Shown here one piece after another: positions 25,120 to 29,342 of a stretch of 64,000 bases of DNA. A model generated the notes under the pieces. The model was not told where the DNA came from, ran no database searches, and saw only the letters and a program-made list of their open reading frames with translations. This stretch comes from Escherichia coli (GTDB lineage Bacteria > Pseudomonadota > Gammaproteobacteria > Enterobacterales > Enterobacteriaceae): the NCBI RefSeq assembly GCF_013315695.1, contig NZ_CP054353.1. One strand, written 5' to 3'. A program made the translations under genes and the position numbers. Each line of letters starts with the position of its first letter. Positions within the stretch are counted from its first letter, which is position 1.

Positions 25120-26658
25120 TCAGAACAGCCCCAACGGTTTATCCGAGTAGCTCACCAGCAGGCACTTGGTTTGCTGGTAATGCTCAAGCATCATCTTATG
25201 GGTTTCGCGTCCGATGCCCGACTGTTTGTAGCCGCCAAACGCCGCATGTGCCGGGTAAGCGTGATAACAGTTGGTCCACACGCGCCCGGCCTGAATGCCG
25301 CGCCCCATCTTATAGGCCAGATTACCGTTGCGGCTCCAGACACCCGCGCCCAGGCCATATTGCGTGTCGTTCGCCAGCTCCAGCGCCTCGTCCATCGTTT
25401 TGAAGGTGGTTACCGCTAGCACCGGGCCAAAAATCTCCTCCTGGAACACGCGCATATTATTCTGACCAAACAGAATCGTCGGTTCGAGGTAGTAGCCGTC
25501 TTTCAGTTCGCCTTCCAGCAGCTTGCGCCGCCCGCCGGTGAGCACGTCTGCGCCCTCTTTTTTACCAATATCAATGTAGTTGAGGATGGTTTCCAGTTGC
25601 CCGTGAGAAACCTGCGCCCCCATTTGCGTCACGCTGTCGAGCGGGTTACCGCTACGAATGCTTTCGACACGGCGGATGGCGCGTTCCATAAAGCGTTCGT
25701 AGATAGACTCCTGCACTAAAGCACGGCTTGGACAGGTGCAAACTTCGCCCTGGTTAAAGGCAAACAGTGCAAAGCCTTCCAGCGCTTTATCGAAAAAGGC
25801 ATCTTCTTCATCCATCACATCAGCAAAGAAGATATTTGGCGACTTGCCGCCCAGTTCCAGGGTTACCGGAATAATATTTTGCGTGGCGTACTGCATAATT
25901 TGTTGGCCCACTTCCGTTGATCCGGTAAACGCCACTTTGGCGATGCGTTTCGAGGTCGCCAGATATTCGCCAATTTCCCCACCAGCGCCGTTAACCACGT
26001 TCACCACGCCCGGCGGCAGTAAATCACCGACGATTTCCATTAGCAGCAGTACAGAAAGCGGGGTAAGACGTGCGGGTTTCAGCACCACACAGTTGCCCGC
26101 CGCCAGCGCGGGAGCCATTTTCCAGCTCGCCATCAGCAGCGGGAAGTTCCACGGAATAATCTGCCCCACCACGCCTAACGGTTCGTGGAAGTGATAAGCC
26201 ACAGTTTCGCTATCCACTTCACTAATACCGCCTTCCTGCGCCCGAATACACGAGGCAAAATAGCGAAAATGGTCAATCGCCAGCGGCACATCAGCAGCAC
26301 TGGTTTCGCGAATGGGTTTGCCGTTATCCCAGGTTTCAGCGGTCGCTAACAGTTCGAGGTTCTGCTCCATCCGATCGGCAATCTTAAACAGAATCGCCGC
26401 GCGATCCTGCACCGAAGTATGCGCCCATTTATCTTTCACTTTGTGCGCAGCATCCAGCGCCAGATCGATGTCTCGTTTGCCCGAAGACGCCACTTCGCAC
26501 AGCAGCTGTCCGGTCACCGGCGTCAGGTTCTGGTAATACTCGCCGTCGGCAGGGGCTACCCATTCGCCGCCAATAAAGTTGTCGTAGCGGGCTTTTAACT
26601 TGAGGGGGAAACCATACTCGCCGGGCTTAATCTGTGCTGAAGGGGGATTATTGGTCAT
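25120..26658 (-). CDS. aldB: aldehyde dehydrogenase B
   Basis: 512 aa starting [15 protein letters not shown]; aldehyde dehydrogenase catalytic Cys/Glu motifs; the six-frame ORF is 30 codons longer upstream. Confidence 0.9.
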
Positions 26659-26765
26659 GATCGTCTCCTTGCGGTGTGAGGTATAACAAGGGTAGACGTG
26701 ACTGGCGAAATCTTCGCCAGTCGATAACAGCTTTACGACGGCTATCACGAATTTACGGGCAAGGG

Positions 26766-28061
26766 TTACAGCGGATAATGCGCGAAGTACACGGCTTGCT
26801 GGTCATTAATTTTCTTCTCTTGCGCAAACCCTTCTTTAACAATTGTCCGTAAATCAGCTCGAGCCGTATTATCAGAGACGCCCAGGCTCGCGCTAATTTC
26901 AGCAACTGTGTACTCTTTCCCCGGATTGGCGAGCATCACATTCAGGAGCGTTACCTGGCGCGGATTCAGGCGTTTAAGCACACCAGAGCTAAACAGCACA
27001 CTATCGAGTTTTGCGCTTCGTTGTGTAATTTCATCGATATGCTGCTGCCAGTTTTGCAGAGCACGTTTAATGACACCCGCCTGATATTCAAGGAAATAAG
27101 TCAGATCCATACCATCTGATTCAGTGTACTGGTAGCTGGCGGCATATTTGACCGGTGCAGCATGAAGCAAACGGCTGATGGAAATATATTTAAAGACATC
27201 GTAGCCCGATTTCAGCATATACCAGTAAAACAGCGCCCGACTGGTGCGCCCGTTGCCATCCCGAAACGGATGTTCATGGGCCAGCATAAAATGCAGAATG
27301 CAGGCACGGACCAACGGATGAATATACCCTTCATGGCTGTTTAACCACTGGCAAACTTTTTCCAGCCGTTCCGGTAACAATGCCGCAGCGGGCGGTTGAT
27401 GCACTATATTGCCATCATAGTCGGCGATCACAACATCATCTGTTTCACGAAATTCTCCCGGACGATATTTCGCGTCATTGATTCCACCCATACCAATGGC
27501 ATGTAACTGGCGAATAAGCGCAGGTGTCAGCGGTTCTGCGAGTAAGTGCGGAATTTCCGCCATCAGCCGGGCATTTCCCGCAATCATATGCTCGTCTTCA
27601 GTGCGTGGCGACCGCCCTGTTTCCAGCATTTTTCTCGCCACCAGCGTTGTAGTATTCGCACCTTCCAGCTGGGAGCTGGTGATCGGCTCTTCCAGGCGTA
27701 ACTGGCTTAACTCGGCTCCGGCCCCGCGTAACCGTTCAGTCTGATCTTTCAGCGCCAGCGCGGTAGCACGTTTGTCGACAAGCTCGCACGCTTCTGCAAT
27801 CACCGGGGTAATGTTGAATCCGGCCTGTTCACCCGCTTCATTGCAATAATTAATTCGTTGGATCGCCGCGTTGCGCGCCAGACGGGTAAGCGTCCACGCC
27901 ACATCGACGTTTTCTCCTTTTTTGATGCGGTACTGCAACTCATCAAAAGGCAGATAACGTCCTTTTTCATCGGTAACCCGGTTAAAGCGCAGGTGGGCCA
28001 GGAGTTCCTCACCCGATAAGTGTGATAAAGGAATAAGTCCGGGAGGTGATTTGATAGCCAT
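26766..28061 (-). CDS. Fic (AMPylase-type) family protein with N-terminal inhibitory motif and C-terminal winged-helix domain
   Basis: 431 aa; Fic active-site motif [15 protein letters not shown]-terminal SSQLEG matching the (S/T)xxxE(G/N) inhibitory-helix pattern; C-terminal HTH-like segment ([28 protein letters not shown]). Confidence 0.8.
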
Positions 28062-28064
28062 GTG

Positions 28065-28145
28065 CTTATCTCAAAAAAGCGCAATATTGAGATAGTGTAT
28101 AGCAGGAAAGAGAAACTATCTCAAAAAAAGCAAGTTTTGAGATAG
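28065..28145. promoter_or_regulatory. two ~30-bp palindromes (TATCTCAAAAAA…TTGAGATAG) immediately upstream of the Fic gene; candidate operator pair
   Basis: cttatctcaaaaaagcgcaatattgagatag at 28065-28095 and ctatctcaaaaaaagcaagttttgagatag at 28116-28145. Confidence 0.45.
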
Positions 28146-28190
28146 TTGAAAAAGCGGCTGACAACTCGCCAGCCGTTGTGGGAATGATGA

Positions 28191-29342
28191 TTACATTGCG
28201 GCGCGATAAATCGCCACAATTTCTTCGTGAGTTGCCTGGATCGGGTTAGTAAAGCCACAGGCATCTTTCAGGGCATTAGTCGCCAGTACCGCGAAATCTT
28301 CTTCTTTCACGTTCAGGTCACGCAGGCCTGCCGGGATATCCACTTTCTTCGCCAGTTCACGGATGGCGTTAATGCAGGCTTCAGCACCTTCCGCGTCGTT
28401 TTTACCAGTCACGTTCACGCCCATTGCAGCGGCACAGTCACGCAGACGTGCTGCAGCGACTTTGCTATTGAATACCTGAACGTGTGGCAGCAGAACAGCA
28501 TTACATACACCGTGTGGCAGGTTGTAGAAACCGCCCAGCTGGTGCGCCATCGCATGAACATAACCCAGAGAAGCATTATTGAACGCCATACCGGCGAGGA
28601 ACTGGGCATAAGCCATTGCTTCACGCGCTTTCGCATTACTGCCATCTTCAACGGCTAACGGCAGGTTTTCGGCAATCATGGTCACGGCTTTCAGTGCGCA
28701 AGCGTCAGTGATCGGCGTGGCGGCAATAGAAACATACGCTTCGATAGCGTGCGTTAAGGCATCCATACCCGTTGCGGCGGTCAGTGACTTCGGCATACCG
28801 ACCATCAGAGATGAGTCATTGACAGAAAGCAACGGAGTTACATGTTTATCAACAATCGCCATTTTGATATGACGCGCTTCGTCAGTGATGATGCAGAAAC
28901 GGGTCATTTCAGAGGCCGTACCCGCCGTGGTATTGATGGCGATCATCGGCAGCTGCGGTTTTGCAGAGCGGTCAACGCCTTCGTAATCGCGAATATCGCC
29001 GCCATTGGCTGCCACCAGCGCAATACCTTTTGCGCAGTCGTGCGGAGAACCACCGCCTAAGGAGATCACGCTATCGCAATTATTTTCTTTAAGTAATTTC
29101 AAACCTGCGGCGACGTTTTCCGTGGTGGGGTTAGGTTGGGTGCCATCATAAATAACGCTAAAAATATTGCGTTCTTCCAGTGCTTTTTGCACATCACCCG
29201 CCATACCCAATTTCGTTAACATATTGTCGGTGACAATTAAGGTACGGGTAAATCCATAATCTGCCATCATATTCATTGCATCATTCAATGAATCAGCACC
29301 AATAACATTCACGGAAGGAATAAAAAAGGTTGAAGCTGCCAT
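28191..29342 (-). CDS. yiaY: iron-containing alcohol dehydrogenase YiaY
   Basis: 383-aa Fe-ADH family protein. Confidence 0.85.

Follow-up and report, generated by a model that had tools for sequence, protein, structure and literature searches.

Paired palindromes upstream of an accessory Escherichia coli Fic gene are candidate operators for repression by its own winged helix

We analysed a 64-kb stretch of Escherichia coli DNA (the window) with the gene order yiaV-yiaW-aldB-[Fic]-yiaY-selB-selA. The Fic gene is encoded on the minus strand. Directly upstream of it, past the yiaY stop codon at 28191, is the region that holds the two palindromes described here (28065-28145). When complete E. 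coli genomes were searched, the Fic intergenic region was matched in 1580 of 5426, always between a gene annotated as 'Fic family protein' and yiaY. It was absent from 3846 of the 5426 genomes and Fic is thus an accessory gene; in K-12 MG1655, aldB and yiaY are adjacent and there is no Fic gene. The features of the locus are:

26766..28061, minus strand: Fic gene, 431 aa, RefSeq label 'Fic family protein'
26781..26978, minus strand: region coding for the winged helix-turn-helix (wHTH) domain, residues 362-427
26835-26876, minus strand: recognition helix, residues 396-409, formed by the third wHTH helix (397-409) and N-capped by S396 in the AF2 model
28065..28096, no strand: candidate proximal operator, core TATCTCAA-N12-TTGAGATA at 28067-28094, ending 5 nt before the Fic ATG
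28096..28104, minus strand: extended -10-like element TGcTATACA, abutting the proximal operator; putative function
28114..28147, no strand: candidate distal operator (upstream in the Fic sense), core TATCTCAA-N12-TTGAGATA at 28117-28144
28119..28124, minus strand: -35-like hexamer TTGAGA, the inner arm of the distal operator, matching the -35 consensus at 5/6 positions; putative function
28155..28175, minus strand: yiaY intrinsic terminator, 9 pairs of which 6 are G-C, followed by CTTTTT; boundary of the Fic module and outside it

The yiaY terminator is also present in K-12, which lacks Fic. On the opposite side of the gene, a program-made open reading frame for aldB spans 25120-26748 with a GTG start at 26748, and RefSeq places the aldB start at an ATG at 26658 (MTNNPP...), so that the true Fic-aldB gap is 107 nt. 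We saw no AS1-like small gene downstream of Fic in this gap. A perfect hairpin, GACTGGCGAAGATTTCGCCAGTC, lies between the Fic stop codon and the aldB start (26696-26723, minus strand); because it also occurs in K-12, it is part of the aldB upstream region and not of the Fic module. Literature searches with the arm sequences, or for Fic together with aldB or yiaY, returned no relevant paper on the E. coli locus or the motif.

A sequence-only reading had described two palindromes directly upstream of the Fic start, and both of the strings it quoted are present there. Its spacing of about 50 bp was also borne out, since positions 28067-28096 and 28117-28146 form a 30-nt direct repeat that is 80% identical and has a start-to-start distance of 50. 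The proposed arms had to be redrawn: they are inverted repeats as claimed, but the 7-bp length given for them (TATCTCA/TGAGATA) did not stand, the actual arms being 8-13 bp long with CAA-N12-TTG as the fixed unit. At the distal site, pairing extends to 13-nt arms around an 8-nt gap (AACTATCTCAAAA-N8-TTTTGAGATAGTT, 28114-28147). The pattern TATCTCAA-N6..16-TTGAGATA matched twice in the window and 0.00 times in 100 dinucleotide-preserving shuffles. With the gap fixed at N12 and up to three mismatches allowed, the two promoter sites were still the only matches in the window, against 0.13 expected.

In the Fic sense, the region reads: yiaY terminator, distal site with TTGAGA, a spacer of 17 nt, TGcTATACA, proximal site, 5 nt and ATG. 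The proximal palindrome (28096-28065) starts on the last base of TGcTATACA, and the five nucleotides between it and the ATG at 28061 are AGCAC. A strict consensus scan called no sigma-70 promoter in the Fic upstream region, because the -10 hexamer TATACA ends in A and not in T; we infer the Fic promoter from the position of these elements and their conservation. A transcript that begins about 7 nt past the -10 element would start within the first proximal arm. The 50-bp spacing follows from promoter geometry between -35 and +1 (20 nt to the -35 arm, 6+17+6, then 1-3 nt) and therefore does not indicate helical phasing between dimers. The location of the palindromes, one overlapping TTGAGA and the other covering the expected transcription start, supports their assignment as promoter operators.

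To assess conservation, we took 80 loci with Fic homologues from reference genomes, of which 78 were usable for an upstream motif scan. A strict motif was defined as NNNNNCAA-N12-TTGNNNNN with at least 7 of 8 positions palindromic, within 150 nt upstream of the start. It was present in 34 of the 78 loci, with 48 sites in total; dinucleotide-preserving shuffles of the same upstream regions gave a mean of 0.07 loci and a maximum of 2 (300 shuffles). Together, the window shuffles, the mismatch scan and the shuffles of homologous loci rule out a chance origin of the palindromes. The strict motif failed at the other 44 loci, many of which show degenerate or N10 versions, and a relaxed N10-12 scan recovered the layout in 46 homologous loci and the window. 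The hosts include Enterobacterales, Pseudomonas, Alteromonadales, Aeromonas, Marinomonas, cyanobacteria, Campylobacterota and others. The earlier reading had proposed a search for the same palindrome elsewhere: there was no further copy in the 64-kb window, and 508 kb of homologue flanks contained 10 strict matches, 4 of which look genuine.

Several features of the layout recur at the homologous loci: (i) two strict sites lie 49-52 bp apart in 14 loci (mode 51); (ii) in the 34 loci with the strict motif, the proximal site ends 0-7 nt before the start codon in 24, overlaps it by 1-3 nt in 5 and lies 16-54 nt away in 5; (iii) the inner arm is TTGAGA or TTGAAA at most loci that have an upstream site; and (iv) a -10-like element, reading TGCTATAAC, TATAAT, TATATT, TATACT or TGCTAT, abuts the proximal site. 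The view that the palindromes are operators within the Fic promoter is thus supported on two counts, their overlap with the -35/-10/+1-like region in E. coli and the conservation of the same layout at homologous loci. The arm sequence is conserved and the spacer sequence is free, both within E. coli and E. albertii and across phyla. In the former two species the arms are invariant, and the substitutions seen from the palindromes to the start codon affect the distal spacer, the stretch that separates the two sites, the -10-like element and the bases beside the ATG. The motif also accompanies a homologue of 41% identity on the Klebsiella pneumoniae IncFIB plasmid pKp_SB617_1, where TTAACTCAA-N12-TTGAGTTAA lies 5 nt before the ATG (L091 265-300).

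Other plasmids and neighbourhoods showed further arrangements. Aeromonas plasmid copies carry TTGAGA, 17 nt, TATAAA and then a degenerate TCTCAA-N12-TTGCGA; no such site was seen at the Fic copies of Vibrio plasmids. In Pantoea and Erwinia, an operator-like palindrome, AATCTCAA-N12-TTGAGATT, lies just past the Fic stop codon between convergent genes (L078 4306-4333, L071 4240-4267, L075 4316-4343) and could be a second binding site, perhaps for looping, or a terminator. In Alcanivorax quisquiliarum, a perfect CATCTCAA-N12-TTGAGATG (L048 1811-1838) precedes a higA-like antitoxin gene by about 70 nt and Fic by 1.2 kb; it could reflect cross-regulation or coincidence.

The protein encoded downstream of the palindromes has the hallmarks of a regulated Fic enzyme with a DNA-binding tail. 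Fic proteins with an N-terminal inhibitory helix carry the motif (S/T)xxxE(G/N). The corresponding class II motif is found here at residues 129-134 as SSQLEG (S129-S130-Q131-L132-E133-G134), every residue of which is invariant in an alignment of 20 homologues of 41-75% identity. The active-site motif HxFx(D/E)GNGRxxR occurs at residues 264-275, with H264, P265, F266, D268, G269, N270, G271, R272 and R275 invariant in the same set, and the Pfam Fic domain matches at E = 1.7e-19. The C-terminal wHTH domain claimed in the earlier reading is evident in the AF2 model of the monomer (pLDDT 89.2), which ends in a three-helix bundle and a beta-hairpin wing (H367-378, H386-393, H397-409, E413-417, E423-427). 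N398, T399 and A400 of the recognition helix are invariant in the 20 homologues. A Pfam HTH_DeoR match at residues 384-412 was weak, and the C-terminal domain alone, searched against solved structures, gave weak matches to the TFE winged helix and nothing else.

With the full AF2 model, the closest structures found by Foldseek were CbFic2 (8CIL), SoFic (3ZCN/3EQX) and CccR (7XUX), over about 355-368 aligned columns; a family profile likewise matched 8CIL, and this match takes in the C-terminal domain. The subfamily studied here has about 65 additional N-terminal residues compared with these three proteins. The PADLOC SoFic profile matched residues 96-428 over nearly its full length (E = 1.2e-43, 148 bits). 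The NCBIfam SoFic equivalog scored 40 bits against a cut-off of 550, which speaks against the Fic protein here being a SoFic orthologue.

Which protein binds the palindromes? We compared the arms with the recognition helices of the cognate Fic proteins and found the following combinations:

Helix VSDNTAR: arm ATCTCAA, gap N12
Helix VSENTARDDLKK: arm ACCTCAA, gap N12
Helix CSYNTA: arm A/GTCTCAA, gap N12
Helix CAYNTA: arm ATTTCAA, gap N12, in two separate clades (L035/L044 and L025/L046)
Helix I[SA]ENTAR: arm AACTCAA or AACGCAA, gap N10

In a neighbour-joining tree, the change from Ser to Ala coincides with the change from ATCTCAA to ATTTCAA twice, in L035/L044 and in L025/L046, each nested among CSYNTA sisters. 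This covariation of Ser/Ala with C/T was seen in the C[SA]YNTA clade and not elsewhere, since VADNTAR and IAANTAR proteins keep C; as it is not universal, we take it as supportive and not as conclusive. Pseudomonas hosts harbour three Fic clades with three arm and spacing types, each matching its own recognition helix, and the host therefore does not set the site. Arm variants in these alignments thus follow the Fic clade and the recognition helix, not the host. A further Pseudomonas sub-clade (L060, L063, L073) has lost the invariant NTA of the helix (CSHREAA, CSHSEAA, CSYTEAA) and has degenerate palindromes about 100 nt upstream of Fic, which suggests that helix and site decayed jointly.

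We clustered the open reading frames within 2.5 kb of Fic at the 80 loci and found no neighbour gene conserved family-wide, only synteny internal to Pseudomonas. A conserved partner gene or antitoxin was rejected on this ground. In E. coli, yiaY and aldB flank Fic directly, and no small antitoxin gene of the kind found in type II toxin-antitoxin operons is adjacent. Because the motif travels with the homologues, no neighbour is conserved and the arms track clade and helix, Fic itself is most likely the binder.

Alternatively, the palindromes could be operators for another DNA-binding protein, be it a regulator of the host or a partner that is not linked to Fic. Among solved structures CbFic2 is the closest, and it binds random DNA strongly and has no defined motif (PMC10628234); the covariation at S/A396 is moreover incomplete. 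Both points would fit a binder other than the Fic winged helix. However, the motif accompanies the gene through many phyla and onto the IncFIB plasmid, no neighbour gene travels with it, the three clades within Pseudomonas carry arm and spacing variants that match their own helices, the clade with the decayed helix also has decayed arms, and both CccR and SoFic bind their own promoters. We therefore regard a foreign binder as very unlikely.

Another alternative is that the palindromes work at the RNA level, as hairpins. In that case the distal one would be a second terminator or insulator after yiaY, and the proximal one a hairpin in the 5' leader that masks the Fic ribosome-binding region. 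The distal palindrome does fold, at -14.1 kcal/mol (z = -6.0), and is flagged as terminator-like with the tail TCTCTTTCCT; for the proximal one, whose 3' arm is 5 nt from the AUG, the values are -7.3 kcal/mol (z = -2.5). Yet the distal stem has 3 G-C among 13 pairs and a broken T tail, unlike an intrinsic terminator, the strong yiaY terminator already lies 8 nt upstream of the distal palindrome, and distal sites elsewhere lack a following T run and occur downstream of unrelated genes. The conserved -10-like element lies right against the proximal site, which would place the transcript start in the first proximal arm and leave the RNA without the intact hairpin; folding from that point gave z = +0.66. 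The arm sequence CTCAA...TTGAG is itself conserved across phyla, beyond mere pairing, around a large gap of fixed length (12 nt, or 10 nt in a single deep clade) and free sequence. Mismatches in the 7/8 sites show no G-U bias (of the 23, wobble pairs in the Fic sense account for 4 and A-C pairs for 8), and Rfam gave no match at E <= 1. A role as RNA structures is accordingly very unlikely.

The presence/absence polymorphism of Fic raises a last alternative. Compared with Fic-negative genomes (L002, K-12; L090), the Fic-specific segment spans 26771-28138 (1368 bp), and in K-12 and 06-00048 the sequence CAACTATCTC, which is the outward portion of the distal arm, runs directly into the TGTAA of the Fic stop region. 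The polymorphism looks like a 1368-bp deletion of promoter and gene that left half an operator arm as a scar. That the palindromes are recombination or mobility sites at the ends of a gene cassette would agree with the accessory status of Fic (1580/5426 genomes) and with a junction inside the distal palindrome, but we give it hardly any credence: the two palindromes share one end of the gene and the E. coli 3' end has no matching site, no recombinase gene is linked to Fic in the window or in the neighbourhoods of the homologous loci, the palindromes keep a fixed position relative to the start codon and the -35/-10-like elements across dozens of unrelated contexts, and the simplest account of the K-12 junction is a scar from a single deletion, with microhomology of the TATC type.

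What, then, would Fic do at these sites? We consider it probable that the palindromes are the operators of a self-contained Fic module that is autorepressed by its own winged helix. Fic would form a dimer, as suggested by SoFic, CccR and CbFic2, whose group is characterised by homodimers formed through an N-terminal helix. Each dimer would engage one xTCTCAA-N12-TTGAGAx site, with a wHTH recognition helix (SDNTAR...) on either arm. In the CccR dimer, the DNA-binding helices are 70.2 Å apart (PMC9755527). The arm centres here are 20 bp apart, or about 68 Å on B-DNA, a distance compatible with one dimer per palindrome. A dimer on the distal site would cover the -35 hexamer, which is the arm TTGAGA, and a dimer on the proximal site would cover the transcription start and the short leader, with repression rather than activation as the presumed outcome. 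As Fic accumulates it would shut its own promoter, so that a potentially toxic AMP-transferase would be kept low and buffered.

A more elaborate possibility is that the operators, besides limiting expression, belong to the switch of the enzyme: occupancy of the pair, if of high affinity, would set the oligomeric and catalytic state of Fic, or release from DNA would free active enzyme while de-repressing its synthesis. SoFic reportedly needs to dimerise for AMPylation. The idea draws on this behaviour and on CbFic2, in which DNA binding drives dimerisation and (de)AMPylation, and we regard it as unlikely. If true, a single gene would make up a DNA-tethered, self-timed toxin or defence module, retained along with its cis-site in hosts as far apart as Enterobacterales, cyanobacteria and Campylobacterota; release of the enzyme could be triggered by, for example, phage infection or stress.

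Fic enzymes that end in a winged helix are widespread, and recent work has linked them to inter-bacterial toxicity (CccR), control of translation through EF-Tu and phage defence (SoFic). To our knowledge, DNA targets of wHTH Fic enzymes are known for CccR only, and roughly for SoFic; we know of no defence phenotype or EF-Tu target for the subfamily studied here. What the locus adds is a family-wide candidate operator, xTCTCAA-N12-TTGAGAx, together with natural specificity variants. The putative operator is usually paired, one copy carrying the -35 hexamer and the other covering the predicted transcription start. The variants of site and helix form a small recognition code that can be tested, the site is a sequence signature for annotating promoters of the Fic subfamily, found in the 1580 E. 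coli genomes mentioned above, and it offers a ready design for EMSA, footprint and reporter work in E. coli.

Autorepression by a Fic-wHTH protein is already established for CccR, and the locus described here would extend that principle to a new subfamily and overturns nothing. CccR (YPK_0951 of Yersinia pseudotuberculosis, 7XUX) uses its C-terminal HTH domain to repress the promoter of its own gene, as demonstrated by EMSA, footprinting and reporter assays; the sites are close to the -35 and -10 boxes, and the dimer is required (PMC9755527). Like Fic here, it belongs to the class II Fic enzymes and carries an HTH domain at its C-terminus, and it matches the AF2 model in structure, with about 17-18% identity in the structural alignment; CccR has 380 aa and Fic here 431 aa. 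CccR is a T6SS-secreted protein encoded beside an effector cluster, whereas Fic here adjoins nothing of that kind.

We rebuilt the cccR promoter from the authors' primers (PMC9755527, Supplementary Data 3) and a 99%-identical Logan contig, with 25 nt upstream of the proximal element. The rebuilt promoter reads AAGATAATGAT-ATTTACATGTTT-GAGATAATCTAACTTT-ATG and contains AGATAAT direct repeats 22 bp apart, AAGATAATGAT-N12-GAGATAATCT-AACTTT-ATG (cccR-like loci L083 1-50 and L084 520-650). It shares the 8-mer TTGAGATA with the arms here, within TTGAGATAATC, 6 nt before the ATG, but its elements are direct repeats and not CAA-N12-TTG palindromes. The published inverted repeat AGATAATCAT-N26-ATGATAATCT (PMC9755527) was not reproduced from the 99%-identical contig or from a 91%-identical cccR pseudogene locus. 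The latter has a longer, rearranged region with four AGATAAT copies.

SoFic (SO_4266 of Shewanella oneidensis, 3EQX/3ZCN) shares the alpha-inh motif, the Fic core and the wHTH domain with Fic here, and its best TM-scores against the AF2 model are 0.6-0.7. According to a preprint, dimers of SoFic bind their own promoter region, within the 100 bp that precede the start codon (bioRxiv 10.64898/2026.07.09.737422). The 300-bp upstream fragment given in its Table S2 contains ATCGACAT-N22-ATGTCGAT, ATCGACAT-N21-ATGTCGAT and ATGTCGAT-TGA-ATCGACAT, so that both half-site and spacing differ from the CAA-N12-TTG sites here. The latter two arrangements fall in the 100-bp fragment F1, which is the best SoFic binder; no motif is defined in the preprint text consulted. 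Since the cccR and SoFic operators both differ from the present sites, the geometry of the sites is not transferable from them.

CbFic2 (CBU_0822 of Coxiella burnetii, 8CIL) is the best match to Fic here by both sequence profile and Foldseek, C-terminal domain included. It is a dimer whose wHTH domain contributes to DNA binding, as seen with random DNA, and DNA binding stimulates its (de)AMPylation (PMC10628234). No specific operator is known for CbFic2, in contrast to the defined candidate operator of the present subfamily. Finally, the proposed module would share the logic of type II toxin-antitoxin operons, in which a toxic enzyme is held low by feedback at palindromic operators over its own promoter; there the antitoxin is a separate gene, whereas in Fic the toxin-like enzyme carries the DNA-binding domain in the same chain.
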